A stretch of DNA of 64,000 nucleotides from positions 13,582-77,581 of the forward strand of contig CAZECX010000001.1 of assembly GCA_964510965.1 (NCBI GenBank). Direction: 5' to 3'. Below the pieces are notes generated by a model, which was not told where the DNA came from, made no database searches, and saw only the letters and a list, made by a program, of their open reading frames with translations. Positions 14,178 to 53,709 of this stretch are shown piece by piece. The position numbers were made by a program, and so were the translations under genes. This DNA comes from an uncultured Nitrospina sp. (GTDB lineage: Bacteria > Nitrospinota > Nitrospinia > Nitrospinales > VA-1). Within the stretch, counting starts at the first letter, position 1; each line of letters starts with the position of its first letter.

Positions 14178-14178
14178 T

Positions 14179-15381: not shown

Positions 15382-15382
15382 A

Positions 15383-28976: not shown

Positions 28977-30378
28977 GCCGATTTATCAAACCCTTCCAAA
29001 TGGTTAAAAAAAGAATTTTAATATCAAATATTAATGACCAGTTTTTAATATAATATAGATCGAATTCTATCCGCTTTTCCAAAGACGTATTTCCACGCCA
29101 GCCATTTACCTGTGCCCATCCAGTTAAGCCTGCCTTCATTTTTAATCGGAGCATGTAGAATGGTATGGATTTTTTAAATTCGTCCACAAATACAGGCCTC
29201 TCAGGTCGCGGTCCGACTAAACTCATCTGCCCCATAAACACATTAAATAATTGAGGTAGCTCATCCAGGCTGGTCCTTCGTAAAAAAGATCCTACAGGAG
29301 TTTTTCTATCATCATCTTCCTTCGCCCAAACAGGTCCCGTTTTATTTTCCGCACCTATTTTCATCGACCGAAACTTGTGCATCATAAAAACATCTCTATC
29401 CAATCCCATTCTTTCCTGTTTATACAGCAAGGGTCCACGGGATCCAAGTTTGACGGCTATCGCTATTAAAATCATCAACGGAAAGGTTATTAGAATTGCC
29501 AATCCAGAAAGCACAATATCAGAAACACGCTTCAAAACGGTATTCCAACCGTAAAGAGGAGACTCTGTCAGGTTAATCACCGGCATTCCATCCAGGTCTT
29601 CAATCCCAGATTGCAAATCTATATAGCGTAGTAAATCGGGAACAAGTTTAATGTCCACAGTTTCTTCTTCTAAACTTGCTAAAATTTTCTGCAATCGATC
29701 ATGAGCGTTTAAAGGTAGCGCAATAAAAAGCTGATCCACCTCATTTTCTTTTATAATTCGATTCAAATCTTCATAGAGCCCAAGTACCTTATATCCTTCT
29801 AATTCTGAACCCACTTTTTCCATTTCGTGAGTTAAATAACCGACCACGGAGAACCCAATTTCGGGGTACAGATTGAGTTTTTGCACAACTTTTTGTCCTA
29901 ACTCTCCTGCCCCAACCACGAGAACATTCCTCAGGTTCATTCCACGACCATGCATTTCCTTTACCAGGAACCGCGTAAATCGGTGCGATACAAATAAAAA
30001 AATATTGGCAAAAACCCAAAAATAAACAGCCATAATCCGCGAAAAAGAAAGCTCGCGGTAAAAGAAGGTCCCGGCGGTTAATAGAAGAACGGAAAGAGAA
30101 GTTAACTTTAAGATAGAAAAATATTCACTGGTAGGAGAATTCCTGCTTATAGGCTTATCATGATCCAAAATCCTGCTGTTTACATGAAAAACCAACCAAA
30201 TGGGTAGAAGCGCATAAAGATACATATTCTCAACGGGAGGGCTACCTGCTGCTGAAAAAAGCTCTAACTCAAACCTGACTAAATAAGCAAACAACCAAGC
30301 AAGGGCAACAGCAAAACTGTTGAAAAAAAATATTGCCGTTGAATAAACCTGACTATGTTTTCTTATCAATGCCATCAC
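28966..30378 (-). CDS. Polyprenyl-phosphate hexose-1-phosphate transferase (WbaP/WcaJ type)
   Basis: 470 aa. N-terminal TM block, a central Rossmann-like region, and a C-terminal bacterial sugar transferase domain (LDELPQLFNV, LVGPRPERP). Overlaps kdsB by 11 nt. Confidence 0.85.
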   Translation of the reverse strand: MMALIRKHSQVYSTAIFFFNSFAVALAWLFAYLVRFELELFSAAGSPPVENMYLYALLPIWLVFHVNSRILDHDKPISRNSPTSEYFSILKLTSLSVLLLTAGTFFYRELSFSRIMAVYFWVFANIFLFVSHRFTRFLVKEMHGRGMNLRNVLVVGAGELGQKVVQKLNLYPEIGFSVVGYLTHEMEKVGSELEGYKVLGLYEDLNRIIKENEVDQLFIALPLNAHDRLQKILASLEEETVDIKLVPDLLRYIDLQSGIEDLDGMPVINLTESPLYGWNTVLKRVSDIVLSGLAILITFPLMILIAIAVKLGSRGPLLYKQERMGLDRDVFMMHKFRSMKIGAENKTGPVWAKEDDDRKTPVGSFLRRTSLDELPQLFNVFMGQMSLVGPRPERPVFVDEFKKSIPFYMLRLKMKAGLTGWAQVNGWRGNTSLEKRIEFDLYYIKNWSLIFDIKILFLTIWKGLINRHAY

Positions 30379-30503
30379 TAAATTTATATTTGAAATTTAC
30401 CAGCAATCAAAAGCTACGGGGAAATGACTAAGAACGAGTTGCTCAGAAACTTCTGGAGCTCTCTAAAGAAGAAACGGGATATTAAAGCCAAGGGACAAGT
30501 AAC

Positions 30504-30529
30504 AAAAAAACAGACGCAAACCAGTCTGT
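30504..30529 (-). terminator. Weak candidate rho-independent terminator
   Basis: Minus strand reads ACAGAC-tggtttgc-GTCTGT-TTTTTT, 86 nt downstream of the stop at 30615. The stem is only 6 bp. Confidence 0.3.
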
Positions 30530-30614
30530 CTACCACAGCTTTAATGGATGGAGGATAACCTAATTCGGGGTTTGCTTCAACCGCTAAGATGGATCGAAAT
30601 TTACAAAAAAATGC

Positions 30615-31619
30615 CTATTGAATACGGTTCAATTGAGCCAGAATCTTGCCCCGTACCTCGGCTGTGGGATTTCTTTTTAAAGCACCTTCCAGTACTTCAA
30701 TAGCTCTACTGGTTTCCCCTTTCTTGGAGTAGCTCACTCCAAGCATATAGCGAGAATCATGCACCTTGTTGCCACGCGGATATTTGTTTAAAACGGTTTC
30801 AAATTGCAGGATAGCATCGTCAAACATTTCCAGCGCCAAATAGTTGCTGCCTATCCAAAATGCAATATTATCTTTTAGCTGATTTGGGGGATTGCTAAGC
30901 GCAAGATTTTGAAATAACAAAATAGACTCATCATAATTTCTACTGCGATATGCAGATAGTGCCCGGTCATATTCTGCGGGGGTTTTCATTTTAGAACGAC
31001 GCCTTTTTGATCGATTCATTTTCGGCGAGTGCGATTTTTGCATTTTAATCCGCGAAATTTCTTCGTTCAATCTTGCCATCTGCGCTTTTAGATCTTCCAC
31101 TTCTGGCTCAAGAAAATCGGTCGAGTCGGAAGCAGAGGAAACGCCCCCTTCTATGCGTTCGGTCGCAGCATCAATTTTGGGTTCTAATGTGCTAAGAATT
31201 TCTTCTAATTCTCTCACTTTACTGATTAGAGCCTCTTGCTGATTTTGCAGACTTTCTACATCTCCTTTGAGTTCGCCTTTATCCGTCCTCTGGTCCACGC
31301 TTGCGAAACCATCGGAGTCATCATCTGCAAATCCCTCATCGTCCTCCATCCCATCGGATTCAGAAAATGAATCATCTTCTGCAAAAAAGTCATCCTCGAT
31401 GCTGCTTTCGCGACTGGCTCTTTTTCCCCGCCCACGTTTTGGTCTTTCATCCGCGAATTCCTCATCTTCAAAAGGGAAATCCTCTTCAAACGCAAGATCG
31501 TCCTCTTCATCTCCTACCCAGGGCAAATAACTACAACCGCCCAAAAACAGAGGAAACGATAAAAAGATTACCAGTGCGAGGCGTGCTAAAAAGGTGACCG
31601 GTGGCATGTTTTTCTCCAT
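30615..31619 (-). CDS. YbgF/CpoB-like lipoprotein with acidic low-complexity region
   Basis: Possible lipobox FLGGC. An Asp/Glu/Phe-rich segment, then a coiled coil (LQNQQEALISKVRELEEIL, VEDLKAQMARLNEEISRIK), then C-terminal YbgF-type TPRs (YDRALSAYRSRNYDESILLFQNL...KYPRGNKVHDSRYMLG). Confidence 0.6.
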   Translation of the reverse strand: MEKNMPPVTFLARLALVIFLSFPLFLGGCSYLPWVGDEEDDLAFEEDFPFEDEEFADERPKRGRGKRASRESSIEDDFFAEDDSFSESDGMEDDEGFADDDSDGFASVDQRTDKGELKGDVESLQNQQEALISKVRELEEILSTLEPKIDAATERIEGGVSSASDSTDFLEPEVEDLKAQMARLNEEISRIKMQKSHSPKMNRSKRRRSKMKTPAEYDRALSAYRSRNYDESILLFQNLALSNPPNQLKDNIAFWIGSNYLALEMFDDAILQFETVLNKYPRGNKVHDSRYMLGVSYSKKGETSRAIEVLEGALKRNPTAEVRGKILAQLNRIQ

Positions 31620-31767
31620 ACAAATTCGGTTGGGACAGTGTTATCCCTTAATAATCAATGAATTATATTGGGTTGTCAGATTTTTGTCAATACAATAATC
31701 CAAGCCACAATATTCTATAATTTCTATTATTTATCGAATAACTGGCCGTTTTCCATTAGCTTTCTCA

Positions 31768-32907
31768 TCACAAAACCACTGTTTTATTGAGTCCAACGGA
31801 TTTAACCAAGGTTTCTATCACGAAATCCAACTCTAATTTAGAGGTATTGCAACCCAAACTGAAGCGAATGGAACTGTTGATTTTTTCATCCGGTATTCCC
31901 ATGGCCCGAAGGACAGGGGATGGCAAACCCGTACCGGAGCTGCAGGCAGATCCCGTTGAAACAGCAATCCCTTCCATATCCAAAGCAATTAACAGGGTAT
32001 CCCCTTCAACCCCATCAAAACCCAGATTCAATGTATTTGGCAACCGGTTTTCCCTGTCACCAAATAACTCAGTATCTGGAATCATTTCACAGACCCTTTT
32101 GTAGAAATAATCTCTCAATTCTGAAATCTGTGATGTTTCACCCTTTTTCTTTGCAGCCAGTTCACTAGCTTTGCCAAATCCTATAATTCCGGCGACATTT
32201 TCTGTCCCCCCTCTTCTTTTCTTCTCCTGACTTCCACCACACACAGGTGAAAAAAGGGCAGGCGTGCCTTTTCTAAGGTACAACGCCCCCACCCCTTTAG
32301 GACCATTAAATTTATGCGCAGAAATAGACAACATATCCACAGGGTAATCCTGCAAGTGGAATGGAATCTTTGCAACACTTTGGACTGCGTCTGTGTGGAA
32401 TAGAACTCCTCTATTCCGGGCAATTTCACTGACACGTTTTATATCCTGCAAAACCCCTGTTTCACTATTGGCATGTTGAAGCGATATTAAAACAGTCGAA
32501 TCTGTTATTTGAGATTCCAAATCGTCTATATCTATCCGCCCAAACCGGTCAACATCAAGATAGTGAACCTCTACCCCCTGCTCTTCCAATTGTCGGCAGG
32601 GATTAATTACTGAAGGATGCTCCGTTTTACTGGTTATTATTTTTCCCTTATCCCTAAACGCTACTCCTAAGAGGGCAAGGTTATTGGCCTCGGTCCCACC
32701 ACTTGTGAAAATAATCTCGGAAGAATTAGCGCCAAGAAGATGAGCAACCTTCTCCCGCGCTTCATCCAGTTGAACTCTCGCCGTACGACCGAACGAATGG
32801 ACGCTGGAAGGGTTCCCGAAATTATCCCGAAGAGCAGGCAACATCGCATCCAAAACTTCAGGATGCAAAGGGGTGGTTGCATTATGATCTAAATAAATAT
32901 TTTCCAT
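31768..32907 (-). CDS. Cysteine desulfurase (NifS/IscS class I)
   Basis: 379 aa. IYLDHNATTP N-terminus, PLP lysine context SISAHKFNGPKG, active-site loop STGSACSSG. Confidence 0.9.
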   Translation of the reverse strand: MENIYLDHNATTPLHPEVLDAMLPALRDNFGNPSSVHSFGRTARVQLDEAREKVAHLLGANSSEIIFTSGGTEANNLALLGVAFRDKGKIITSKTEHPSVINPCRQLEEQGVEVHYLDVDRFGRIDIDDLESQITDSTVLISLQHANSETGVLQDIKRVSEIARNRGVLFHTDAVQSVAKIPFHLQDYPVDMLSISAHKFNGPKGVGALYLRKGTPALFSPVCGGSQEKKRRGGTENVAGIIGFGKASELAAKKKGETSQISELRDYFYKRVCEMIPDTELFGDRENRLPNTLNLGFDGVEGDTLLIALDMEGIAVSTGSACSSGTGLPSPVLRAMGIPDEKINSSIRFSLGCNTSKLELDFVIETLVKSVGLNKTVVL

Positions 32908-32991
32908 GCGAAGACAAAAGTCAAAAGTAGATAGAGTAATTATCCTTTAGGGTAAAACAAAAGGGAGAAAAAAATAAACGCTTAACTGATG

Positions 32992-33714
32992 CTAACCGGA
33001 AATTTTTTTTCTGGGAGCTTCATCAATGGGGGGTGAATCCGGCAAGACAATTCCATTTTCATTTAACGTTTCTTTCAGTTGGCGGATTTCTTTTTCCATT
33101 TCCGGCAGTCGGTCCAACATACATTCTATAGCGCGCGCAACGGGATCGGGAAAGGACTCGGGCCCCTCCTCGTCTTCCATTTCAGAAGATATACCAGAGA
33201 ATACCACCCTGCCCGGCACACCGATCACCGTAGAATATTCCGGCACATCCTGCAAAACCACAGAGCCTGAACCAATCTTGGTATTACAACCAACTTTTAT
33301 GGGGCCTAACACTTTAGCTCCTGCACCGATAACGACGTCATCTGAAACGGTGGGATGGCGCTTTCCCTTTTTGGTAGCCAAACCTCCCAAAGTCACCGCC
33401 TGATAAACAAACACATTGTCACCTATTTCAGATGTCTCACCAATGACAACACCCATACCGTGATCAATAAAAAATCGCTTCCCGATAATAGCTGCCGGGT
33501 GAATTTCAATGCCGGTAACCCAGCGGGCAAACTGCGACAAAGCTCTGGCAATAAACTTAAATCCTATTCCCCAAAGCCAATGCGTGACCCGATACGCGAT
33601 CAAGGCATGGACTCCTGGATAAAGAATCAAAACTTCCAGAGCATTTCTAGCCGCTGGATCCTTTTCCAGAGCAACTGCAATATCTTCTTTTATTTGCCGA
33701 AGCATCATAGTCAA
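32992..33714 (-). CDS. cysE: Serine O-acetyltransferase
   Basis: [18 protein letters not shown]-terminus and hexapeptide repeats ([31 protein letters not shown]...). Confidence 0.9.
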
Positions 33715-33837
33715 AAACTTTTAACCTGTTGTTAAACTTTATATTATAGCGCAGAACAGCCCAGACGCAATGCCCGGGACCTATTAATTAAAAGGATTCG
33801 ATTTAACGGAAAAACGGTTAAAACTAAATTGGGGGAG

Positions 33838-34512
33838 TTATTTGTACATGAGGGAAACTAGTTGGACACGGGCATGCACCCGGAACTTGGAGTAAATCCT
33901 TTTTAAATGATCTTTTACGGTGTGTGGACTCAAATGTATCTTCTTGGCGATTTCTTTATCACTCAAACCCTCGCAAATTAATCGGGCCACATCGGCTTCC
34001 CTTTGAGTCAAGCCCGCTTCCTGCATTAAAAAGGTCATTTGTTTTTCAAGCTTATTATCGCCACTTACCAAAATTTCATTTTCCGCTTCAACCTTTTCAA
34101 ACATTTTCAGGTTTTCGCGTGCCCGTTTGGAAAGAGTTTTCATGATGGCCATCAAAGTATCCGGATAAGAAGACAATTCGGAATGAAACAAATCATGAGT
34201 GATTTCCAAGAGATGAGTGACACCCGAAGAAACTACCTTTGCAGACCGAGGCTTGGATTCAATCAAAGCCATTTCTCCAATATATTCCCCCATACCTCGG
34301 ACGGCGATCTCGGTTTCGTGTTTGTTAACAGTCACCCCACCAGAGAGAATGACGAACATGGAGTTACCATCATCACCATCTTCAAACAACGTCTCCCCAT
34401 CTTCTAAACTTTTATACAAGCATTCATTCGCAACTGATTCTAAAACATCTTGAGGAAGTTTTTTCAGAAAATCGATTTTAGATAGAAAGTCTATATTTGT
34501 TAACTCAGACAC
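33838..34512 (-). CDS. cNMP-binding domain / LuxR-type HTH transcription regulator
   Basis: GTG start 4 nt after AAGGTG. N-terminal CAP-type cNMP domain with phosphate-binding cassette GEYIGEMALIESKPRSA. C-terminal GerE/LuxR HTH LTQREADVARLICEGLSDKEIAKKIHLSPHTVKDHLKRIYSKF. Confidence 0.8.
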   Translation of the reverse strand: MSELTNIDFLSKIDFLKKLPQDVLESVANECLYKSLEDGETLFEDGDDGNSMFVILSGGVTVNKHETEIAVRGMGEYIGEMALIESKPRSAKVVSSGVTHLLEITHDLFHSELSSYPDTLMAIMKTLSKRARENLKMFEKVEAENEILVSGDNKLEKQMTFLMQEAGLTQREADVARLICEGLSDKEIAKKIHLSPHTVKDHLKRIYSKFRVHARVQLVSLMYK

Positions 34513-34534
34513 TCGGCACCTTAAATAAATTTTA

Positions 34535-34549
34535 CAATTTTGAAAATTG
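34535..34549. promoter_or_regulatory. 7-1-7 perfect palindrome CAATTTT-G-AAAATTG upstream of the cNMP-LuxR gene
   Basis: Read directly from the sequence. It lies 23-37 nt upstream of the GTG at 34512, and the outer TTT/AAA extends the symmetry with one mismatch. Candidate operator. Confidence 0.35.
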
Positions 34550-34638
34550 CAAACGACCCTATAATTTCAGAATTATAACATTTTTGAAAAAATTAATTTG
34601 AGGCAGGAAAACACGAATAGTTTCTCTTCGGGAAATAA

Positions 34639-36108
34639 TTATAATTGGAAATTTAATCCTGCTAAAAACACATTTTGATTAAAATCCACGGAAACTAAAT
34701 TTGAATTGCTCATGACTCGGGTATAGCTAATATCAAAGTCTATATGATCTTTTATGATAGGTAGATTAAACAAAAGGTTAAGAGTGTGCTTGGAATCAAA
34801 ACGCGGCACACCGATAGATGAATTAATATTCTCAAAATTCTTAAGATAATAGTTATATGTAAATTGGGTTGATATTTCGAAGGGTCCGGGAATTTTTATT
34901 CCGCCCGTTGCTGAATGTCCCAAATAGTCCAACTCGAAATCCTCGGTATCATCCATGTCAAAAGCATAACTGGCAAACAAGTAGGCTTTCGCATCCATAA
35001 AAAACCAGAACTGCGTCAAACTCCATACATGAGATGTTCCATCCCGGGCATTACCCACAAAATAATCGTTAATATTATAGGTGTAAGATAGATTTGTGTA
35101 GAAGTTGGGATCGGGTGCATAACCCAGACGCGGGGTGATGCTGTGAGTTGCATTTAAATCAGCTCGATCCAGGAAACTGTAATTATAATTAAAACTTATA
35201 TCACCATCCCAATCACCGGAACCATAACCCACAGAGGAATAAAAGTCATGCGATGTGCTGTCGAACTGCGGCAGTTTGTCCCATCTCTGTTGTGAAAAGT
35301 CATAGCCGATTTCAATTTCCGAGTTTTCGAAAGGTTCGAATTGGGTTCCTACGCTGAGCAGATAACCTATAGATCTATCCTGCTCGTTGGAAACAATGTC
35401 CTGATTTGATACGATGACATTATCATCGTATTGAGAATTAATTTCAGCCTTGATCCACCAGTTTTTTTCACCCTCCGACTCAACCCCCAACAGCTTTAGC
35501 ATATCTTTGGCTTGCCCTGCTGTGGAAGTATCCGGGCCTTCTTCTACAGCCAATTGAAAAGCCAGTTTTGCCTCTTCTTCTTTTTTACTTTCCAAATATC
35601 CCACACCAATTTGAAAATAGGAAATCTGGTTTAAGGAAGGATCCAGACCCATTGCGGATTGAAAAAATATTAAGGACTCCTCATATTTTTCCATCTGCTG
35701 CAGGGTGAACCCCATGAACAAATTCGCAGTGGCATTTTGGCGATTATTCTCCAACACCTTTTCAAATTTTTGAATGGCCTCAGAGTTGGATTTGAGCTTA
35801 AAAAGCACTATTCCCAATTGTAAGTGCGCGCCTTTGTATTTGGGGTCTTTTTGCAAAACATTTTCAAAAGTCTGCCTGGCCTGTTCCAGCTTTTTTGCTT
35901 TTGCTAAGGTGAGGCCCTTGTAATAGAGAGCTTCGAGATTGGAAGGATCTTTATCTAGGATTTTTGAGAATTCGCTTAGAGCCTGATTATATTTCCCTTC
36001 ATTGTAAAATTGAAGGCCCAGAACCAAAGGAGAGGAAGATGTTTCTTGTGCCTGAGTGGACGCAACGTACAGAGTCAAATATAGAAATAGGTACAAAAAA
36101 AATTTCAC
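34639..36108 (-). CDS. Outer-membrane protein: N-terminal TPR domain plus C-terminal beta-barrel
   Basis: Signal peptide MKFFLYLFLYLTLYVASTQAQE, about 5 TPRs up to roughly aa 200, then about 280 aa of alternating amphipathic strands rich in Y/D/N/S/F, ending GLNFQL. Confidence 0.6.
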   Translation of the reverse strand: MKFFLYLFLYLTLYVASTQAQETSSSPLVLGLQFYNEGKYNQALSEFSKILDKDPSNLEALYYKGLTLAKAKKLEQARQTFENVLQKDPKYKGAHLQLGIVLFKLKSNSEAIQKFEKVLENNRQNATANLFMGFTLQQMEKYEESLIFFQSAMGLDPSLNQISYFQIGVGYLESKKEEEAKLAFQLAVEEGPDTSTAGQAKDMLKLLGVESEGEKNWWIKAEINSQYDDNVIVSNQDIVSNEQDRSIGYLLSVGTQFEPFENSEIEIGYDFSQQRWDKLPQFDSTSHDFYSSVGYGSGDWDGDISFNYNYSFLDRADLNATHSITPRLGYAPDPNFYTNLSYTYNINDYFVGNARDGTSHVWSLTQFWFFMDAKAYLFASYAFDMDDTEDFELDYLGHSATGGIKIPGPFEISTQFTYNYYLKNFENINSSIGVPRFDSKHTLNLLFNLPIIKDHIDFDISYTRVMSNSNLVSVDFNQNVFLAGLNFQL

Positions 36109-36235
36109 AACAAAAAGCCAATTTTTAAAATAAAGACTTTAAGAGTAACCTATTTCTAAAAATTTTCCAGTTTAATTCAACGGGTTAGCTTATTCGGACA
36201 ACCAAACATTTAGCTGGTAGTAATGGACAGCTAAA

Positions 36236-37549
36236 TTAGCAAGCCTTCTTTCCTTTACCTTTGCATTGTCCAGATTTTCCTGGCGATCCCCCTTTATTTT
36301 CTTTATCCTGCCCAACTCTCTTGGTTGCACCTTTAGCTTCCCTTTTAGCAACTTCCTTTCGAAATTTTTTCGCAATTTTTCCAGGATTAGAAGATTTGAA
36401 AGAAGGTTTGAATTTGGTGTTTTTAGGTACGACATCGCCCCCGCCTAATGAAGCGAGTTTGGTATCAGTTTTTCTACCTCGTTTTTCAACCTCATCTTTT
36501 TTCAAAAATTTGGATTTTGCGGTTCTAACACCTTTACCTCTTTTTACACCTTTTCCCTTAAACTTACCTTTGCCCTTGTTTTTAAACTTACCAAGACCTT
36601 TACCTTTGCCGGCCTTTACTACTGCTTTGGCTGCACCCCTGGCAATTTCCTGAATCTGGCCTTTCGCAACAATGGATTTTTTTCCGAGCTGTCCATTGGC
36701 AAGGATAGGAGCGGTTTCAATAGAGCCTGAGATACCTATAAAGGAGGTCTTGCCGGCTTTATCAACTGCCACTACAAATTCCGTCCCGCGCACCCCTGCA
36801 ACTGCAGTTGGGGTCACTACTTTAAAACTGGAACCCTTTGCCTTACCTTTGGTCACCACAAACCTTACGGTTCCCTCGGCGACATTGACCACGGTTTGCC
36901 GCAAGTCTTTTTCTGGATCATAGATATGCTTTTTAATTCTGATATTGGAATTTTCTCCAATGGTCAAAGAACTTTTATCATCGAAGGTGAAAGAAGCTTC
37001 CGAATCCTTTTTAGTTTTGATTTTGTCATTCATAAAAACGGGAGAAGCCAACTGAACACTTTCCCCTTTTTTCTCGCCCTTATGAAACTGCAGGATTTTT
37101 CCATCCGCAGCTGTTGCAATGCCAACATCAGCGGATTTGACAACGCCTTTATCTTTTAGAAACAGTTTTTGTTCGAACAAGTTTCTGCCGGGAGGCTCTC
37201 CCGAAAGAGCATAGGCAACACGCACGAATTCCTGCTCTGTCATCCTTTCTTTAGGATCTTTTTCGGACAGGACTTTAAACCCGCGAATTTTTAAAATATT
37301 TGCAGTTTTGGAATACAACTCTTCCTGCGATAATTTAGCGTGGTTTTTGGGAAGAAAAGGATGATCCGGCTGATTTTCAGCTATCGTTGCAACAAACTCA
37401 CCCCGAGTCAGTTCAGAGTTATCCGTGCTTGCAGAGATGAGCACCAAAGTACAGGTGGCAAATAATAGGAATTGAAAAAGAGGGTTTAAAAAACCTTTTC
37501 TACTTTTCTTAAAAAATTCTTTATCAAAAACTCTATTAAAATTTCCCAT
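36236..37549 (-). CDS. FecR-domain envelope protein with Lys/Gly-rich C-terminal tail
   Basis: N-terminal hydrophobic anchor (LFQFLLFATCTLVLISA). Central FecR fold (SFTFDDKSSLTIGENSNIRI...VVTPTAVAGVRGTEFVV). Last 124 aa contain 36 Lys by my count (GKGKGLGKFKNKGKGKFKGKG...). Confidence 0.7.
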   Translation of the reverse strand: MGNFNRVFDKEFFKKSRKGFLNPLFQFLLFATCTLVLISASTDNSELTRGEFVATIAENQPDHPFLPKNHAKLSQEELYSKTANILKIRGFKVLSEKDPKERMTEQEFVRVAYALSGEPPGRNLFEQKLFLKDKGVVKSADVGIATAADGKILQFHKGEKKGESVQLASPVFMNDKIKTKKDSEASFTFDDKSSLTIGENSNIRIKKHIYDPEKDLRQTVVNVAEGTVRFVVTKGKAKGSSFKVVTPTAVAGVRGTEFVVAVDKAGKTSFIGISGSIETAPILANGQLGKKSIVAKGQIQEIARGAAKAVVKAGKGKGLGKFKNKGKGKFKGKGVKRGKGVRTAKSKFLKKDEVEKRGRKTDTKLASLGGGDVVPKNTKFKPSFKSSNPGKIAKKFRKEVAKREAKGATKRVGQDKENKGGSPGKSGQCKGKGKKAC

Positions 37550-37747
37550 ACTCCTCTGAGGCTCCCTTAAATACTACCGTTTTCGTATTTGCTTCAAAAA
37601 ACATTTCGGCTCTATTATTATGGTCAATGAAAACTACCTCTAAAACAATCCCACAAATGGGGTATTTTATTAAGATTTACCAACCTTGTAATCAAGGCAG
37701 CATGTCTTAATCCTATGCTATCTGCCTGATATTTGGTTTCACACAAT

Positions 37748-39886
37748 TCAAATTTCTAAACGGGGTTTAACCAGTATATGAGCAAGGCTTTCCGGTAGCA
37801 ACGGTTTTTCAACAATATTCCCTTGAATTACATCACAACGGTATTTGCGTAGTAGTTCTTTCTGCTCTTTGGTTTCCACTCCTTGGGCAGCAGTCCTTAA
37901 ATCAAGGCTTTTGCCGACAGTAATAATAGTGTTGGTAATAGCGTCATTGGCTCCTGTGAATAATCCATTCACCAATCCTCGATCGATATTCAATCCGCTC
38001 AAAGGTAAGGTAGCCAAGGTGTTTAGGGAAGATAACCCCATACTGAAATTATCAATGATAATTTTAGCCCCCATTTCATTGACTTCATTCAATTGCTTTT
38101 TATGTTCAGCCGAAGTTTTTACTAAATTGATTTCTGGAATTTCTATTTCAACAAATCCACTGGGAAGCCCCGATTTACTAATAAAATTATCCAGGGTTTG
38201 AGAAAATTTGGGGTTCATCAGTTGACTATCAGAAATATTTAATGCCAGAGGCAAGGGTGTTAATCCGTCTTTTTTCCAAATCGCGATTTGTTTTTGAATA
38301 TTTTCAAATACCCATTCACCGATGGGCAGCATCAATCCTTTTTCTTCTGCAAAGGGCAGAAAGTTATCGGGTAAAATAATGCCTTTCTCGGGGTGATTCC
38401 ATCGAAGTAATACTTCAAGTCCAGTACATACACCTGTTTTGGAATCCACCTTGGGTTGGTAATTTAAAATAAAGGCATCGTCTTCCAAGGCTCTGTGTAA
38501 ATCATTTTTGAGGTCAAATCGTTTTTGAGCCACTGAAAGCAATTCAGGGTCATGCATAAAATAAGTATTTTTCCCCTGAGCCTTGGCCCGATACATCGCC
38601 GCATCTGCATTTTTATAAAGCGTTTCCACATCATTGCCGTCATTGGGGTAAACCGCGATGCCAATGCTGAAACTGGAAAAGATTTCGTGTGATTCAATTT
38701 GAAAAGCGGGCTTGAGAGATTCAACTATCCTTTCCGCAAGCACAGTAGAATAATTGCTGTCCTTCAACCCACTCAAAAGAACAACAAACTCATCACCTCC
38801 AATTCTGGCAACAGTGTCTTCCCCTCTAAGCAATCCGGTCAAACGTCCTGCGACTTGCTTTAATAATTCATCACCCACAGAATGGCCCAGGGTGTCATTC
38901 ACGGTTTTAAAGTCATCCATATCGAGAAACAACAATGCGAACTTTTGCTTGTTACGATCCGAATGAGCAAGAGCCAGCTGAATTCTATCGTTGATCATAT
39001 TGCGGTTGGGTAAATTAGTCAGAGGATCAAAAAAAGCCATTCGCTTCATTTTGTATTCCATCTGTCGAAACTCGGTGAGATCTCTTACAATTACAACAAG
39101 GGCGCTGGTATCCCGGAGGACCATCAATTTCATTTTTACTTTTATAGGATAGACCGTGCCATCCTTTCTCTTTTGAAAAGCTTCAAAAACCTGAATAATT
39201 TTGCTTCCACTTTTAAGTGTTTCAGCGTATTCATCAAATTCGAGTCGTGATTGATCTTCCCAGAATTCATAAAGAGCCCTGCCCTTAAGTTGACTCTTGG
39301 AATAACCCATGTTCTTTGTAGCCACAGAATTGGTTTGGGTAATTTTGTAATCTTTGTCATCAATGACAAAAATTTCGTTGCTGGTATCGTCCAGCACCTG
39401 TGATAATTTTTCAGCGTTGTCTTTCGTCAGAACCAACTCGGCTTTCATGTCGTCCATGACATCTAAATCAGTACGAGCTCTTTGTGAAAGAGTCTTTAGC
39501 AGAGCAAACAGGGATTGGGAGTGGTCAGAAAATTCTTTTTGAAATTTTTCATCGGTAATTTCAAGCAATTGCGATTGCACTTCTGCACGAATGGTTGCAG
39601 ATCGGGGTTCAGATCCAATCAAACCCATTTCACCGATGTATTCACTGGTCTTTCTTCTGGCAATCACCTTGTTCTTTTTATAAACCAGCAATTCTCCAGA
39701 AAGGATGATGTACATGGCATTAGAAACATCTCCTTCTTCAAATAATACTTCAAGGGCTTCCAAAGTAACTATTCGGGAAGAGCGCGCCAATTTTGCAAGC
39801 GTTTCTTCAGAAAAAAAGCTTAAAAAATCAACATTCCTAAGCTGCTCTAAGTTTTCGACTTCATCCATTGTAAAATTTTCTGCCAT
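37748..39886 (-). CDS. cNMP-binding / PAS / GGDEF / degenerate-EAL protein (predicted diguanylate cyclase)
   Basis: 712 aa. cNMP cassette SEYIGEMGLIGSEPRSA, a PAS domain, then GGDEF (aa 363-367, nt 38786-38800) with RGED I-site. The EAL half reads EVLLR...DNFSMGLSS...NID...QGVE. Confidence 0.85.
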   Translation of the reverse strand: MAENFTMDEVENLEQLRNVDFLSFFSEETLAKLARSSRIVTLEALEVLFEEGDVSNAMYIILSGELLVYKKNKVIARRKTSEYIGEMGLIGSEPRSATIRAEVQSQLLEITDEKFQKEFSDHSQSLFALLKTLSQRARTDLDVMDDMKAELVLTKDNAEKLSQVLDDTSNEIFVIDDKDYKITQTNSVATKNMGYSKSQLKGRALYEFWEDQSRLEFDEYAETLKSGSKIIQVFEAFQKRKDGTVYPIKVKMKLMVLRDTSALVVIVRDLTEFRQMEYKMKRMAFFDPLTNLPNRNMINDRIQLALAHSDRNKQKFALLFLDMDDFKTVNDTLGHSVGDELLKQVAGRLTGLLRGEDTVARIGGDEFVVLLSGLKDSNYSTVLAERIVESLKPAFQIESHEIFSSFSIGIAVYPNDGNDVETLYKNADAAMYRAKAQGKNTYFMHDPELLSVAQKRFDLKNDLHRALEDDAFILNYQPKVDSKTGVCTGLEVLLRWNHPEKGIILPDNFLPFAEEKGLMLPIGEWVFENIQKQIAIWKKDGLTPLPLALNISDSQLMNPKFSQTLDNFISKSGLPSGFVEIEIPEINLVKTSAEHKKQLNEVNEMGAKIIIDNFSMGLSSLNTLATLPLSGLNIDRGLVNGLFTGANDAITNTIITVGKSLDLRTAAQGVETKEQKELLRKYRCDVIQGNIVEKPLLPESLAHILVKPRLEI

Positions 39887-40101
39887 TAAATCTGACCTGG
39901 AGCTATTATAGATAAAAAACCTGAATCAATTATAGTTTCTATAAACAAAAACAAAATCCCCCCCGTTTAAGGGATAAGCAAAAAACTATTGTTTTTAAAT
40001 GATTTAACTAATTATTTGTTACACAATATTGACATTATTTTTAATTTCAGTCAGTGATGCGTAAAATTACAATCATTGGAATTAATGGAACAGACAAGTA
40101 A

Positions 40102-42363
40102 TTGATAAATAATAAAAAAAAATATTCCATCTATTTTTCTGGGTTGGTAATTACTTTAGCAGTTTTGTGTGCCTATGTGGTTTTTCCAAATGCATTAACA
40201 CGTCTGGATTATCTATTTCAAAATTTTCATTTCCAACTACGCGGACCCATTAAACCTACGTCCAATATTGTTATCGGAAGAATTGATGAAAAAAGTATAG
40301 ATACTTTGGGAAGATGGCCCTGGCCGCGATCGACTTTTGCAAAAATCACTGAAAACCTTTCAAGCTTGAATGCCAAGGTAATTGCTTATGATGTTATTTT
40401 TTCATCTCCTGAAAAATTTCCATCGGAAGAGAATTTGATTGAGCTGGATAAACTGATCTCGGAAAATTCTTCCGCCAAAAATTATTTAAAGAATCTAATA
40501 AACCAAAACAACCCCGACGAAGTTTTTTCAAAAACTCTTTCAGATGGAAGCCCAACGGTTCTGGGTTATTTTTTCCATTTTTCTCCTGATGGTCTTGACC
40601 ATCTTTCTGAGGAGCAACGTCATCAATTTTTTAAAGACATAAAAAAATCACAGTTCAGAGGATTTTTAAAATCCAACGCGGATTTGGATATTTCCCATCT
40701 CCCCTTTCCAAAAGCTTTTGCAATTGAATCTAACCTGGCTATTTTTTCTGATTCCGCATCCGGTTCCGGTTACTTGACTTTTAATGTGGACCTCGATGGC
40801 ATGATCCGACGTTTGCCCTTAATGGTGCGCTATCACGACAGCATCTCTAAAAAGGATTTTTACTTTCCTCCTCTCTCTTTACGAATTCTCGAAACTTATT
40901 TGGATGGGAATTTACTTTTCAGGGTGGGCGAAGGGGGAATGGAAGAAGTCATAATGGATGCGGATGAATCGGTAATCATACCCACAAACTCCAAAGGCGA
41001 ACTGGAAATAAATCATCTTGGGCCTAGAGGGACATTCTCCAGTTTTTCTATCAGCGATCTTTTAAAACCCGAAAAACTATCGGAGCTCAAAGACAAAATA
41101 CAAGGGAATATTGTGTTGATCGGTGCAACTGCGACAGCACTGGAAGATTTAAGGTCAACCCCTTTTGACCCCATCCTGCCGGGGGTGGAAATTCACGCAA
41201 CAATATTGGATAATTTTTTCAATAAATCGTTCCTCTCCCAAGCTTCTCCACTTTACGATTTACTTTTAATAATTATTACGGGGATTTTATGCACCCTTAT
41301 CTACTCCCAAATCAAACCCGTCTCAGGCCTCATCTTTTGGGTATTGAGCAGTGGGCTATTATTTCTTTTAAGTCATTGGACTTTTGTTGAAAAAGGTTTC
41401 TGGTTAACCGATATTTATCCGTTTTTCACCAATACTGGAATAGCAGCTTTAATAATGATTGATCATTTTATGCGTGAAGAAAAACAAACAAAATTTATTA
41501 AAGAGGTTTTTGGACAATATCTATCTCCCCGGGTTGTAAAAGATTTATTAGCAGATCCATCAAGGTTAAAACTGGGGGGTGAGCAAAAAATACTCACCGC
41601 ATTTTTTACTGACCTGGCCAACTTCACCACATTTTCAGAAAAACTATCAGCCGAAGAGCTGGTATCGCTGCTAAACAGCTATTTCACTGAAATGACAGAC
41701 ATCTTGATTGAAAATGATGGAACGCTGGATCGTTATGATGGTGATGCAATCAAAGCCTTCTTTGGAGCCCCCTTATACTTTGAAGATCATGCCAAACGTG
41801 CCTGCTGGACCTGCATTGAAATGCAGGAAAGACTCAGTGAATTGAGAAAAGAATATAAGGAACAGGGAAAACCAGAACTGGTAATGCGGGTAGGTATCAA
41901 CACCGGAGAAATGGTTGTAGGTAATATGGGTTCAAGCACTCGCATGAATTACGGTATGAACGGAGATTCCGTAAACCTGGCCGCCCGTCTTGAAGGAGCC
42001 AACAAACAATACGGGACCTGCACCCTTATAAGTGAATTTACTTACCAGGAAGCGAAAGATTTTATTGAGGTGAGAGAACTCGATACCCTTCGCGTTGTCG
42101 GTCGTTCCACGCCTATAAAAATTTATGAGTTGCTGGGGAAAAAAGGCAGTCAAAATTTTCCAATCGGCTTACCGGATTATTTGGAAGGCCTGAAAAACTA
42201 CAAAGCCCAGAAATGGCAGGCCGCTATTGAGAGCTTTAAAAGAGCCTTAAAAGCTAATCCTGAAGATGGCCCATCACAAACTTATTTGGAGCGCTGCAAA
42301 ATATTCATGGAAGCTTCCCCAGGAGAAGGTTGGGATGGAGTTTTTAACTTGACCAAAAAGTAA
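40102..42363 (+). CDS. CHASE2-sensor class III adenylate/guanylate cyclase
   Basis: 753 aa. TM1, a periplasmic region of about 340 aa (GRWPWPRS is a CHASE2 hallmark), 3 TM helices, then the cyclase domain (FFTDLANFT, YDGDAIKAFFGAP, GDSVNLAARLEG) and a TPR-like tail. TTG start as in the ORF track. Confidence 0.85.
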   Translation: MINNKKKYSIYFSGLVITLAVLCAYVVFPNALTRLDYLFQNFHFQLRGPIKPTSNIVIGRIDEKSIDTLGRWPWPRSTFAKITENLSSLNAKVIAYDVIFSSPEKFPSEENLIELDKLISENSSAKNYLKNLINQNNPDEVFSKTLSDGSPTVLGYFFHFSPDGLDHLSEEQRHQFFKDIKKSQFRGFLKSNADLDISHLPFPKAFAIESNLAIFSDSASGSGYLTFNVDLDGMIRRLPLMVRYHDSISKKDFYFPPLSLRILETYLDGNLLFRVGEGGMEEVIMDADESVIIPTNSKGELEINHLGPRGTFSSFSISDLLKPEKLSELKDKIQGNIVLIGATATALEDLRSTPFDPILPGVEIHATILDNFFNKSFLSQASPLYDLLLIIITGILCTLIYSQIKPVSGLIFWVLSSGLLFLLSHWTFVEKGFWLTDIYPFFTNTGIAALIMIDHFMREEKQTKFIKEVFGQYLSPRVVKDLLADPSRLKLGGEQKILTAFFTDLANFTTFSEKLSAEELVSLLNSYFTEMTDILIENDGTLDRYDGDAIKAFFGAPLYFEDHAKRACWTCIEMQERLSELRKEYKEQGKPELVMRVGINTGEMVVGNMGSSTRMNYGMNGDSVNLAARLEGANKQYGTCTLISEFTYQEAKDFIEVRELDTLRVVGRSTPIKIYELLGKKGSQNFPIGLPDYLEGLKNYKAQKWQAAIESFKRALKANPEDGPSQTYLERCKIFMEASPGEGWDGVFNLTKK

Positions 42364-42419
42364 TTAATAATTAATGTAACGCATACTGCAGCTGTTTTTA
42401 CTTTGAAGAGATTCTATTA

Positions 42420-44522
42420 ATGAATGCAAGGACAACATTAGATGTCTTTAATGAAATAGATTTTCTAAGAGACCTGCCCGGGTTAAATTTTCTCCACGAA
42501 AATGCAAATATTGGAAGATACCAAAAAGGAGATTTCCTGTTTAGAGAAGGGGAAACCGGAGATACCATGTACGTGATTACCGATGGGTGTCTGGAGGTAT
42601 TCAAAGAAAACCGCATCATAGCCAAAAGAACCAAGGGGGAATACCTCGGTGAAATGGCCCTTTTGGGAAATAAAATTCGATCCGCTTCTGTTAAAGCCAC
42701 AACCGATGTTCAAACAATTGAAATCCATGAAAAACATTTTTTAGAATTTTTATCCCTTAATCCTCAGGCCTTTTTACCCCTATTCCAAACTCTTGCCCAT
42801 CGATGGAAAGAGGACTTGGAAAAAATTGATTCTGACAATCTTGAGTTAAAAAAACAAATTCAGTTAAACAGTAGGTATTCTCGCCTCTTAGACGACACCT
42901 TCAACGAAATTTATATTCTTGAAAAAGAAACATATCGAATTCTTCAAGCAAATTCCAAAGCTATTCAAAATCTTGGCTTCACCCACGAAGAATTGAATAA
43001 AACAGTCTTTAGCGATGTATTTGAAAATTTGAAATTGAATGAATTAAAAGAATTATTCGCAACCCTGATTGATAAAAAACAAGTTCAAGTTTCCTTTGAA
43101 AGTGAGAGTAAAAGAAAGGATGGCACAACCTATCCTGTCGAAATACGCATTCAATATTTTGAACTCGAAGATCCCCCGCTGATCTATGCCATTGTCGAAG
43201 ATATCTCAGACAAAAAAGCAATGGAACTGCACATTAAGAAGCTGGCCTTTTACGACACTTTAACCCAATTACCTAATCGAAACTTAATCCGAGATCGTTT
43301 GGAAATCATGCTACCCCGCGCGCAAAGATCAAATTCCAAGGTGGCTGTTTTATCCATGGATTTAGACAACTTTAAATCAATAAATGATTCCCTTGGACAT
43401 GAAGCGGGAGATCAGTTTTTAATCCAAGTGGCGAATCGCTTTGAAGGGATCCTGCGTAAAGAGGATACATTCGGACGTTTGGGTGGTGATGATTTTGTTA
43501 TTCTTCTCCCCAATCTAGAAGATGAATACTTTCCAGCAAAAATGGCGCAACGTGTCCTTGAAATTATGGAGCGGCCCTTCGAATTACAGGAAAAACTATT
43601 TCACTGCAACTTTAGTATTGGAATTGCAATGTTCCCGGATAATGGCAAGGATGTTGAAACAATTTTTAAGAATTCAAACATTGCAATGTATCAGGCCAAA
43701 AAAAATGGTGGCCATACTTACCATATATATGAATCTTCTATGCATGACAAAATCATATCGCGATTGGCTATGGAGCAGAATTTGTGGAATGCAATTAAAA
43801 ATAAAGAATTTAAAATGCATTATCAACCCAAGGTCAACCTGAAAACCGGATTGATTGAAGGATTAGAAGCTCTTATTCGCTGGCCGCAACCAAGTGGTAA
43901 AAATATCTCCCCAGCAGTATTCATTCCCCTTGCCGAGGAAAGCCGACTCATTCATAAAATATGGGATTGGACCCTAGAAACCACATGCGGTCAAATCCAG
44001 GAGTGGTGCCACTTATACGGGAAAGGCATAAAAGTAGGAGTTAACCTGTCGGGCAGACAGTTTGAGCAACCGGACTTAGTTGAAAAAATTAAAAATGTTG
44101 TAATAGCGGAGGGAATCCATCCCAAGTTCCTGGAAATTGAAGTTACTGAAACCGCAGTTATGGCAAATATAAAGGCGGCCATCGATGTATTGGATCAACT
44201 CCGAGATTTCGGGGTCCAAATATCTCTTGACGATTTCGGTTCCGGATATACCTCTCTGGGCTATTTGAAAAAACTCCCCATTAACACCTTGAAAATTGAT
44301 CAATCTTTTATTCGCGATTGTACGGACACCAGCAATTTGGCGATTATTCAGGGCATCATTACCATTTCAAAAAAAATGGGATTTAAAACAATTGCTGAGG
44401 GAGTAGAAATGCAAGATCAGCACGATTTATTAAAGAGTCTTGAGTGCGATCAGTTCCAAGGTTATCTGTGCAGTAAGGCACTCCCGCCTGAAGAAATCGC
44501 TCGTTTAATTTGGCTCGATTGA
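42420..44522 (+). CDS. cNMP-binding / PAS / GGDDF / EAL protein (predicted c-di-GMP phosphodiesterase)
   Basis: 700 aa. cNMP cassette GEYLGEMALLGNKIRSA, a PAS domain, then GGDDF (aa 355-359, nt 43482-43496) with RKED I-site. The EAL set is fully canonical (EALIR, NLS, EVTE, DDFGSGYTSL, KIDQSF, EGVE, QGY). Confidence 0.85.
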   Translation: MNARTTLDVFNEIDFLRDLPGLNFLHENANIGRYQKGDFLFREGETGDTMYVITDGCLEVFKENRIIAKRTKGEYLGEMALLGNKIRSASVKATTDVQTIEIHEKHFLEFLSLNPQAFLPLFQTLAHRWKEDLEKIDSDNLELKKQIQLNSRYSRLLDDTFNEIYILEKETYRILQANSKAIQNLGFTHEELNKTVFSDVFENLKLNELKELFATLIDKKQVQVSFESESKRKDGTTYPVEIRIQYFELEDPPLIYAIVEDISDKKAMELHIKKLAFYDTLTQLPNRNLIRDRLEIMLPRAQRSNSKVAVLSMDLDNFKSINDSLGHEAGDQFLIQVANRFEGILRKEDTFGRLGGDDFVILLPNLEDEYFPAKMAQRVLEIMERPFELQEKLFHCNFSIGIAMFPDNGKDVETIFKNSNIAMYQAKKNGGHTYHIYESSMHDKIISRLAMEQNLWNAIKNKEFKMHYQPKVNLKTGLIEGLEALIRWPQPSGKNISPAVFIPLAEESRLIHKIWDWTLETTCGQIQEWCHLYGKGIKVGVNLSGRQFEQPDLVEKIKNVVIAEGIHPKFLEIEVTETAVMANIKAAIDVLDQLRDFGVQISLDDFGSGYTSLGYLKKLPINTLKIDQSFIRDCTDTSNLAIIQGIITISKKMGFKTIAEGVEMQDQHDLLKSLECDQFQGYLCSKALPPEEIARLIWLD

Positions 44523-45314
44523 TCAGGAAGATTCAGGAGATTCCTCATCGAGGGTGCGGTGGTATTCCTGTAGAATTGCATCCTGTGTTTTTTGATCGGC
44601 TGATTTGTAAATTCGAATGGTTTCAAAATGTTGACTCTGCTGCACTCTCAACAGCTTAAGTCGCATCAATTCAAGAATGGCAAGAAAGGTCACTATAATT
44701 TCCTGTTTGCTATTTAAAACAGTAAAAAATGATTCAAAGGTAACGCTATCTGATGAATTCAATATATCTAAAATATATTGCATTCGATCGGTGACCGACA
44801 TTTCAGTAATTTCAATTTCGTAATCTTTTTCAAAAGATTTCGTATCTAAAATTTTCTGGTACGCCTGGAAAAGATCGAACACAGTCGCATCTACCAACTC
44901 GCGATTTTCAGAGCTTTCTTCTATTTCTATTTCACCACCACGGGAGAATACCTGCTGGCGGTCGTGTTCTTTCATTCGCAACTCAAATGCAGCATCGCGA
45001 TAACGCTGATATTCGCGAAGGCGACGCATCAGTTCCGCGCGAGGGTCTTCCCCTCCTCCCAAATCAGCTTCCTCATCGGTTTCAGGAGCTGGCAATAATA
45101 CTTTCGACTTGATCCGAGTCAGCTCTGCGGCCATGACCAAATACTCTCCCACCAGTTCCAAATTCATCTCCTGCATCATTTCAAGATAATCCATATACTG
45201 CCGGGTGATCTCTGCGATGGGGATATCGTAAATATCCATCTTTTGTTCTTTTAAAAGATGGAGCAAAAGGTCCAATGGACCTTCAAAGATTTTAAGTTTA
45301 CATTGATAAGTCAT
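44523..45314 (-). CDS. scpA: Segregation and condensation protein A
   Basis: FEGPLDLLLHLLKEQKMDIYDIPIAEITRQY is the ScpA/kleisin N-terminus. 263 aa. Confidence 0.8.
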   Translation of the reverse strand: MTYQCKLKIFEGPLDLLLHLLKEQKMDIYDIPIAEITRQYMDYLEMMQEMNLELVGEYLVMAAELTRIKSKVLLPAPETDEEADLGGGEDPRAELMRRLREYQRYRDAAFELRMKEHDRQQVFSRGGEIEIEESSENRELVDATVFDLFQAYQKILDTKSFEKDYEIEITEMSVTDRMQYILDILNSSDSVTFESFFTVLNSKQEIIVTFLAILELMRLKLLRVQQSQHFETIRIYKSADQKTQDAILQEYHRTLDEESPESS

Positions 45315-51230: not shown

Positions 51231-51232
51231 CC

Positions 51233-52345: not shown

Positions 52346-52380
52346 AAATAATTCTTTTAGAATTTGAGGTTAGATAGCTT

Positions 52381-53694: not shown

Positions 53695-53709
53695 ATCTTT
53701 TATAGTCAA

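Follow-up and report, generated by a model that had tools for sequence, protein, structure and literature searches.

The window analyzed here, a stretch of 64,000 nucleotides (64 kb) from an uncultured Nitrospina sp. (contig CAZECX010000001.1), contains six adjacent genes at positions 33838 to 44522 that we consider moderately likely to form a trans-envelope cyclic-nucleotide signaling module of the Nitrospinota, in which a cue would change the level of a cyclic nucleoside monophosphate (cNMP) and the cNMP would in turn act on cyclic di-GMP (c-di-GMP) and on transcription. Judged from gene neighborhoods and aligned motifs, the envelope genes, the cyclase, and the cNMP receivers of this cluster are inherited together, and the motif states of its proteins are read directly from the alignments; which way the information flows, what the ligand is, and which signs the responses have are what we infer. 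Members of the Nitrospinota are the main nitrite oxidizers of the ocean, and to our knowledge there is next to no information on the ways in which they perceive their environment. The locus offers a compact, testable pathway that would start at the outer membrane and end at c-di-GMP and transcription.

The six genes encode a regulator that joins a cNMP-binding domain to a LuxR/GerE helix-turn-helix (33838 to 34512, minus strand), an outer-membrane TPR-barrel protein (34639 to 36108, minus), a secreted FecR-domain protein (36236 to 37549, minus), a cNMP-PAS-GGDEF-EAL protein that we call GE1 (37748 to 39886, minus), a CHASE2 class III nucleotidyl cyclase (40102 to 42363, plus), and a second cNMP-PAS-GGDEF-EAL protein, GE2 (42420 to 44522, plus). 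A sequence-only reading of the window had placed all six open reading frames (ORFs) at exactly these coordinates and strands, and its domain assignments agree with a Pfam profile search, with the barrel half of the TPR protein being supported by an AlphaFold2 model instead. The three cNMP cassettes that it quoted occur verbatim in the translated ORFs, and the spacers that it gave, 215 nucleotides between the divergent GE1 and cyclase genes and 56 nucleotides from the cyclase to GE2, are both right. A phmmer search of all six-frame ORFs of the window bore out its statement that no second cyclase is present and returned no further cNMP, GGDEF, or EAL domains outside the cluster. No cNMP phosphodiesterase or PilZ gene was found among the scanned window ORFs, and a whole-window scan yielded neither a c-di-GMP riboswitch nor any Rfam family at the gathering threshold. 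The flanks of the cluster consist of ordinary housekeeping and envelope-glycan genes.

Inheritance of the cluster and properties of its proteins

We compared the neighborhoods of cyclase homologues taken at falling identity to the window cyclase, the named ones belonging to Nitrospina, Nitrospinaceae, Candidatus Nitronauta, and Candidatus Nitrohelix. All six genes are found in the same order at locus L087 (cyclase identity, 85%), five of them, without GE2, at L088 (73%), and again all six at L002 and L003 from Nitrospina sp. (63 to 64%), where GE2 lies directly upstream of the cyclase on the same strand. Further out, a core of four genes (TPR-barrel, FecR, cNMP-PAS-GGDEF-EAL, and CHASE2 cyclase) recurs in L089 (53%), where the GGDEF-EAL protein occupies the GE1 position; in L091 (51%), next to a cNMP-PAS-histidine kinase-receiver protein; in L004 from Candidatus Nitronauta (47%), with a second FecR-domain protein; and in L009 (46%), which has both a GGDEF-EAL receiver and a kinase receiver. 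The Candidatus Nitrohelix locus L006 (46 to 49%) holds FecR, an unknown gene, TPR-barrel, and cyclase, together with a cNMP-PAS-histidine kinase-receiver protein. In L007, L008, L016, and L092 (39 to 51%) a Crp-type regulator adjoins the cyclase, and in L023 (46% over the matched C-terminal part) a tandem-cNMP protein does so. Given that the identities of the LuxR, barrel, FecR, GE1, cyclase, and GE2 proteins to those of the window drop together locus by locus, the cluster bears the mark of having been inherited as a block. The linkage of producer, receivers, and envelope genes that had been noted in the window alone is thus matched across the Nitrospinota by genes that are conserved together and diverge in step. 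Within this phylum, the protein encoded beside the cyclase hardly ever lacks a cNMP-binding domain, and its output is GGDEF-EAL, LuxR, histidine kinase, or Crp.

To this we added 80 further CHASE2-cyclase loci from many phyla (one genome per species), and 86 loci were counted by iterated profile searches. A FecR-domain gene lies within 10 kb of the CHASE2 cyclase in 41 of the 86, usually 1 to 3 kb upstream and on the same strand; a cNMP-binding gene is present in 17, mostly from the Nitrospinota, and clear TPR-barrel homologues in 8, all from the Nitrospinota. In Halobacteriovorax, a 543-amino-acid protein encoded between FecR and the CHASE2 cyclase is related to the TPR-barrel protein (hhalign probability, 97%), and the alignment reaches into the first barrel strand. 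By these gene neighborhoods, FecR plus CHASE2 is an old and widespread pairing with the TPR-barrel protein as a frequent third partner, and cNMP receivers attached beside the cyclase are typical of the Nitrospinota.

The cyclase, an inner-membrane protein (753 amino acids; Pfam CHASE2, 4.7e-50; Guanylate_cyc, 3e-20), has a first transmembrane segment at amino acids 10 to 28 and a transmembrane cluster at 384 to 455 (helices 384 to 402 and 406 to 424) according to hydropathy. Since these flank the CHASE2 domain (amino acids 21 to 395; 40162 to 41286), the latter is predicted to lie outside the cytoplasm, in the periplasm. The catalytic domain (amino acids 498 to 674; 41593 to 42123) finds its best PDB matches in Cya2 from Synechocystis (2w01; E value, 7e-36) and CyaB from Pseudomonas (3r5g; E value, 1e-36), and it carries the residues of a class III cyclase, with the metal-binding aspartates D504 and D548 and the transition-state residues N625 and R629 invariant in 16 homologues. 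A conserved, TPR-like stretch of about 60 amino acids (690 to 753; 42169 to 42360) extends the protein at its C terminus, and in this stretch Y700, A708, F712, D722, P724, R731, C732, W744, G746, and K753 are invariant within the family.

The pair of residues that specifies the substrate reads R544/G618 (41725 to 41745 and 41947 to 41994) and corresponds neither to the canonical pair for ATP (Lys with Thr or Asp) nor to that for GTP (Glu with Cys, Ser, or Gly). The nearest relatives share R/G, and the deeper Nitrospinota have K/G; 54 loci from other phyla have K/T, the canonical adenylate cyclase pair, whereas CyaK has K/S and the guanylate cyclase Cya2 has E/G. We know of no precedent for an R/G pair in cyclases. 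The arginine at the specificity position may simply stand in for lysine, and cAMP is our default guess for the product, with cGMP or a mixed or relaxed output being possible; the example of XC_0250 from Xanthomonas is a warning about how reliably a product can be predicted from such residues. The choice between R and K does not track the type of receiver or its cassette, as K/G also pairs with GGDEF-EAL, histidine kinase, and Crp receivers. One genome combines an R/G module (L091) with a K/G module (L092). At L092 (15497 to 18481), the module made of the K/G cyclase, FecR, TPR, and Crp-type receiver adjoins CsgG and curlin-repeat genes, neighbors that hint at a biofilm-matrix output.

None of the three receivers has a transmembrane segment according to hydropathy, and we treat all three as cytoplasmic proteins with the cNMP domain at the N terminus. 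Their cNMP domains match the motif for binding competence (G-E-x-[AG]-L...R-[ST/A]-A on the beta-roll) with the cassettes GEMALIESKPRSA, GEMGLIGSEPRSA, and GEMALLGNKIRSA, the first of which belongs to the LuxR-type protein (amino acids 79 to 91; 34240 to 34278, minus strand); the cassettes of GE1 and GE2 are located at amino acids 85 to 97 (39596 to 39634, minus) and 77 to 89 (42648 to 42686, plus), respectively. No residue of Gly-Glu...Arg-Ser-Ala is lost from any of the three domains, and G79, E80, R89, S90, and A91 are invariant among 17 homologues of the LuxR-type protein. The receivers thus read Arg-Ser-Ala, as do CAP and PKG, and not Arg-Ala-Ala. The closest solved sequences are the cGMP-binding domains of apicomplexan PKG, followed by PKA-R, 5h5o (the 129-amino-acid cNMP domain of an XC_0249-like diguanylate cyclase), and Bd1971. 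The sequence-only reading had called the three domains close paralogs, which is wrong, since their mutual identity is 35 to 44%, compared to 62 to 86% between each domain and its own orthologues; the duplications are therefore old. Moreover, the cNMP domains linked to such loci, those of the kinases included, group into a single clade, which the Crp-type domains from other loci do not join. Read this way, the sequence comparison implies that one type of sensor was copied onto different outputs within this family of loci long ago.

GE1 (712 amino acids) and GE2 (700 amino acids), in both of which Pfam recognizes cNMP_binding, PAS, GGDEF, and EAL, are collinear paralogues with 35% identity, and their catalytic motifs are complementary. 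GE1 has the motifs of a diguanylate cyclase, namely GGDEF, DxD, and NDxxGH, with RGED, an RxxD inhibitory site (I-site), five residues upstream (RGED...GGDEF, amino acids 354 to 367; 38786 to 38827, minus strand), and four orthologues are alike. Its EAL domain has lost catalytic residues at three sites, where DD is replaced by DN (DNFSMG, 38036 to 38053), K by N (LNID, 37982 to 37993), and E by Q (AQGVE, 37874 to 37888), again in 4 of 4 orthologues. In RocR- and TBD1265-type EAL enzymes, catalysis is abolished when these residues are lost. GE2 shows the reverse: it reads GGDDF (RKED...GGDDF, amino acids 346 to 359; 43455 to 43496, plus strand), as do 3 of 3 orthologues, and its EAL domain has the full catalytic set [E(A/V)L-R, E, N, ExxE, DD, K, E(GVE), and Q], including EALIR (43866 to 43880), DDFGSG (44229 to 44246), LKID (44289 to 44300), and AEGVE (44394 to 44408). 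With an intact GGDEF and a dead EAL domain, GE1 is therefore probably a c-di-GMP synthase, and with GGDDF and a complete EAL domain, GE2 is probably a c-di-GMP phosphodiesterase. We infer that the GGDDF of GE2 is inactive as a cyclase, although we know of no demonstration that this variant is; the degenerate domain may serve as a site for sensing GTP or c-di-GMP. In the deeper loci, only one protein of this kind is encoded, at the position of GE1; its EAL domain is complete, and its GGDEF motif is unchanged in L089, with RGDEF in its place in L004 and L009. A duplication followed by subfunctionalization into a synthase type and a phosphodiesterase type would be the simplest history. The motifs also fit the earlier suggestion that synthesis and breakdown of c-di-GMP are controlled in parallel, and they make GE1 and GE2 a natural pair of predicted cNMP-gated enzymes with opposite c-di-GMP activities.

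The third receiver, the LuxR-type regulator, has 224 amino acids, with a cNMP domain (amino acids 34 to 115; 34168 to 34413; Pfam cNMP_binding, 2e-15) and a GerE domain (amino acids 168 to 221; 33850 to 34011; Pfam GerE, 3e-17). The GerE match reaches 62 bits against a cutoff of 23.5, and the helices of the AlphaFold2 model span amino acids 153 to 210. In this model (predicted local distance difference test score [pLDDT], 82.5), a cyclic-nucleotide-binding beta-roll is connected through a long C-helix and a flexible linker to a GerE helix-turn-helix of four helices; the beta-roll domain superposes on those of PKA and PKG at about 2 Å, and the overall shape is like that of the Crp family. An identity as a Crp/Fnr protein was rejected, since the C-terminal domain is GerE and Pfam finds no match to a Crp helix-turn-helix. 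The cNMP-plus-GerE family is a small one; clustering at 90% identity gives about 95 groups, nearly all of them from Nitrospinota and often labeled "Crp/Fnr," and among the best 150 clusters at 50% identity in an exhaustive HMMER search of 1.84 billion representatives, only about 4 match over both domains. The family thus looks like a lineage-restricted group of regulators that is mislabeled in databases, and our literature search found no paper on a cNMP-plus-GerE regulator or on cAMP/c-di-GMP signaling in Nitrospina. The gene adjoins a conserved set of glycan-type genes (28966 to 33714, minus strand) for a hexapeptide acyltransferase, a class V aminotransferase, a TPR/coiled-coil protein, and a polyprenyl-phosphate sugar transferase. 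The helix-turn-helix also matches EpsA-type regulators of exopolysaccharides weakly, and the glycan genes are a lead to a possible regulon.

Turning to the envelope proteins, the TPR-barrel protein (489 amino acids) has a signal peptide and matches only TPR in Pfam. The beta-barrel that had been proposed from the sequence finds no support there; it is seen instead in an AlphaFold2 model built with 19 homologues (mean pLDDT, 89.7), which consists of a TPR part (amino acids 27 to 206; 35491 to 36030) and a barrel of 14 strands (amino acids 217 to 488; 34645 to 35460). Its best structural matches in the PDB are BcsC, CymA, and OmpG (Foldseek), and the family forms about 20 clusters in the Nitrospinota. 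Membership in the Slam family was rejected, with TPR_Slam scoring 32.6 bits, below the cutoff of 35.2, and no match to DUF560; a distant relationship to Slam, which also has 14 strands, is conceivable.

The FecR-domain protein (437 amino acids; Pfam FecR, 5e-17) has an N-terminal hydrophobic signal or anchor (amino acids 20 to 38 by hydropathy), a FecR domain (amino acids 175 to 270; 36740 to 37027), and, according to its composition, a disordered Lys/Gly-rich tail (amino acids about 305 to 437; 36239 to 36637). This tail of about 130 amino acids differs greatly between orthologues: the L089 protein has repeats of SAKSAAKD, the L004 protein runs of Gly, and the L006 protein repeats of TGKLTGTTDKLLGS. 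A PDB sequence search with the protein gave no match. The FecR domains of known systems serve to transfer signals in the periplasm. The protein was rejected as a FecR anti-sigma regulator, as only the periplasmic FecR domain is present, and neither a sigma70_r2/r4 gene nor a TonB receptor gene was found in the cluster or its flanks.

Proposed signal path and competing explanations

We propose that the TPR-barrel and FecR proteins would capture and relay an extracellular or periplasmic cue, that the periplasmic CHASE2 domain would receive this cue, by analogy with NsrA in Sinorhizobium meliloti, and that cNMP synthesis by the cyclase would then change. The cNMP would be read by the three paralogous sensor domains of GE1, GE2, and the LuxR-type regulator, so that GE1 would make c-di-GMP, GE2 would break it down, and the regulator would shift transcription. 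A coherent output requires that GE1 and GE2 respond with opposite signs or different affinities, in which case the pair could act as a push-pull switch of the c-di-GMP level.

The FecR and barrel proteins are placed upstream of the cyclase mainly because of a Rosetta-stone fusion, together with the adjacency seen across phyla. On pSymB of S. meliloti, the gene for a 1190-amino-acid FecR domain-containing protein lies directly upstream of cyaK, with a one-base overlap. The protein has FecR at amino acids 66 to 160, TPR at 378 to 587, and a weak match to an outer-membrane protein barrel near the C terminus; its FecR part matches the window FecR protein (BLASTP E value, 1e-9), and its TPR part matches the TPR of the window TPR-barrel protein (hhalign, 94%). 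Because its position at cyaK and its parts fit the published NsrA, we take it to be NsrA, for which a 2020 paper gives a barrel at amino acids 600 to 1200 and reports that NsrA and CyaK are both required to perceive the signal, the ribosomal protein uL2. By these alignments, two separate genes of the window encode domain types that NsrA combines in one fused protein.

Several points weigh against the proposed path. The 14-strand barrel of the window and the larger NsrA barrel do not align; only the FecR and TPR parts do. In S. meliloti, SMc02177 (FecR) and SMb20495 (TPR) are targets of Clr and dispensable for perception of the plant signal, meaning that FecR and TPR neighbors can be outputs rather than sensors. 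The noncanonical R544/G618 pair makes the product uncertain, such that neither cAMP nor cGMP can be assigned to the cyclase. Furthermore, GE2 could keep weak cyclase activity, and other cyclases of the same genome could feed the same receivers. Finally, GE2 and the LuxR-type gene are absent from several related loci, and the three-receiver form is thus clade specific.

Among the alternatives, the one that survives best, possible but clearly less probable than the proposed path, is an open network, in which the genes are linked but the receivers read a common cNMP pool fed by several cyclases, so that the locus would be a handy set of coregulated genes and no private relay. cNMPs are diffusible, many paralogous cyclases were found in the phylum Nitrospinota, Clr of S. 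meliloti integrates many cyclases, and one relative with a 3.25-Mb genome carries at least two CHASE2-cyclase modules, so that cross-talk is possible and the term "self-contained" used in the sequence-only reading is an overstatement. However, each paralogous cyclase has its own adjacent receiver, and the receiver type varies with the locus; in the 3.25-Mb genome, both modules are complete, and neither shares its TPR protein, FecR protein, or receiver with the other. Such individual receivers would be expected if the pairing matters.

Alternatively, the FecR and TPR-barrel proteins might be downstream effectors or have an unrelated envelope function, such as the handling of surface proteins or polymers, and merely be coregulated with the cyclase; we regard this as unlikely, and slightly more so than the open network. 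It would agree with the behavior of the Clr-activated SMc02177 and SMb20495, with a TPR-plus-barrel architecture that is common to exporters such as BcsC, and with the subthreshold TPR_Slam match. On the other hand, NsrA fuses the same domain types, adjoins cyaK, and is needed for perception, and in various phyla and with various output domains, the gene for the CHASE2 protein is usually preceded directly by a FecR gene on the same strand, which, together with the signal-transfer role of FecR domains in known systems, argues for a position on the input side.

That the cNMP-like domains bind another ligand or only dimerize, as many domains of the CRP/FNR superfamily do sense other ligands, and that the cyclase lies beside them by coincidence is very improbable given the intact Gly-Glu...Arg-Ser-Ala in all three domains and its invariance in the LuxR-type family, the cGMP- and cAMP-binding domains among the nearest solved relatives (PKG, PKA, XC_0249-like 5h5o, and Bd1971), and the adjacency of cNMP-binding protein and cyclase that recurs in most Nitrospinota loci.

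The proposed path also has a bolder form, to which we give little credence at present: the output of the R/G cyclase, which is specific to Nitrospina, might be cGMP or a mixture and not plain cAMP, and it might reciprocally switch the dead-EAL synthase and the dead-GGDEF phosphodiesterase, possibly as a heterodimer, and drive an undescribed class of cNMP-dependent LuxR regulators. If this were true, the cluster would act as an insulated, hard-wired circuit that turns a single signal into three outputs and in which an outer-membrane FecR/TPR-barrel receptor is tied directly to the c-di-GMP set point.

Control regions and neighboring genes

The divergent control region between GE1 and the cyclase (39887 to 40101) contains a conserved 19-nucleotide block, TTGTTACACAATATTGACA (40016 to 40034), which occurs only once in the window, is identical in L087, and is partly retained in L088 and L089. 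As a TGT-N12-ACA dyad with a perfect TTGACA, it may be an operator or part of a promoter. An extended -10-like element, TGTTATAAT (34572 to 34580, minus strand), lies upstream of the LuxR-type gene and is conserved in the window, L087, and L002, and a promoter function for it is suggested as a lead only; the near-palindrome ACAATTTTGAAAATTGCAA in the same region was rejected as an operator, as it is not conserved in orthologous loci. A consensus scan of 33500 to 44900 for promoters and terminators returned 35 and 12 sites, compared to 27.7 and 11.5 in shuffled sequences, and is thus uninformative. It is true, as had been stated, that no terminator is visible between the cyclase and GE2, but the terminator scan behind this does no better than shuffled sequence.

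Around the cluster, the ScpA gene adjoins it directly in the window, unlike in L002, where a block of globin, receiver, globin, and chemoreceptor genes (12877 to 17130) lies between the cyclase and the ScpA gene. Elsewhere in the window, a MgsA/RarA-type AAA+ gene (57896 to 59191, minus strand) is split into ORFs of 137 (N-terminal) and 288 (C-terminal) amino acids; it is a single gene of 428 amino acids in L087 and L088, and the split reflects a frameshift or a sequencing error. Between a leucine-rich repeat gene and MgsA, the block at 51227 to 57681 (plus strand) encodes a porin-like protein, a periplasmic binding protein, and a hybrid histidine kinase of 1323 amino acids (PAS-PAS-HisKA-HATPase-REC-REC-Hpt), and the whole block is not at that position in L087 and L088. 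Genes for an HDOD-domain protein and FliG, both common partners of c-di-GMP and motility signaling, are located at 1896 to 2753 and 5121 to 6128 (minus strand).

Comparison with known systems

The sequence-only reading knew of no described system that links producer, receivers, and envelope genes in one locus. This is too strong, as linked loci exist in S. meliloti, Xanthomonas, and Campylobacterota. The NsrA-CyaK/CyaD1/CyaD2-Clr system of S. meliloti likewise has FecR, TPR, and barrel parts beside a CHASE2 cyclase, there as the outer-membrane receptor NsrA on which the CHASE2 cyclases depend, and its consecutive genes cyaD1 (SMc02176), clr (SMc02175, cNMP-binding), and smc02177 (FecR) make up a locus of producer, receiver, and envelope protein. 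It differs in that NsrA is one polypeptide, whereas FecR and a small, 14-strand TPR-barrel are separate proteins in the window; in that the window receivers are GGDEF-EAL enzymes and a LuxR-type regulator and not Crp-type; and in that CyaK has K/S in place of R/G, the two cyclases being about 26% identical overall. FecR genes are also clustered with CHASE2 transmembrane sensors in the CHASE2-cyclase/FecR/TPR/phosphodiesterase cluster noted in Campylobacterota (mBio 2022, PMC9239204), which shares TPR as well, and in the "BiofilmReg" operon of Burkholderia, with LysM-FecR and a CHASE2 histidine kinase (PMC5192318). Both reports are gene-neighborhood observations without cNMP receivers in the cluster, and the Campylobacterota cluster carries a cAMP phosphodiesterase, unlike the scanned ORFs of the window.

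On the receiver side, XC_0250/XC_0249 of Xanthomonas campestris resembles the window in that a class III cyclase gene is linked to the gene for a cNMP-domain diguanylate cyclase; there, the cNMP made by the guanylate cyclase XC_0250 stimulates c-di-GMP synthesis by the cNMP-GGDEF protein XC_0249. In contrast to the window, XC_0250 is no CHASE2 receptor and has atypical catalytic residues, and the pair has one receiver without an EAL partner, envelope genes, or a cNMP-LuxR regulator. In Bdellovibrio, the cNMP-binding domain of Bd1971 gates an EAL c-di-GMP phosphodiesterase, which is the kind of gating that we predict for GE2, and the sensor domains match at an E value of about 3e-7; unlike GE2, Bd1971 has neither PAS nor GGDEF and has not been described within a cyclase locus. 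Among composite GGDEF-EAL proteins, those of the PdeA (CC3396) type in Caulobacter and those of the LapD/FimX type are known to pair an active domain with a degenerate one that has a regulatory role. In the window, by contrast, the complementary forms are paralogues in one locus with the same type of N-terminal cNMP sensor.

Every step of the proposed path thus has a precedent (XC_0250/XC_0249, Bd1971, and CyaD1-Clr), and the sequence-only interpretation, reasonable for the most part, involves no new principle. What is new is the combination of known parts, and its interest lies in three of them, namely the two enzymes with complementary motifs, the family of cNMP-LuxR regulators, and the cyclase with its R/G pair. 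Seen from this side, the rhizobial NsrA-CHASE2 route would be one form of a much wider FecR/TPR-barrel/CHASE2 module.

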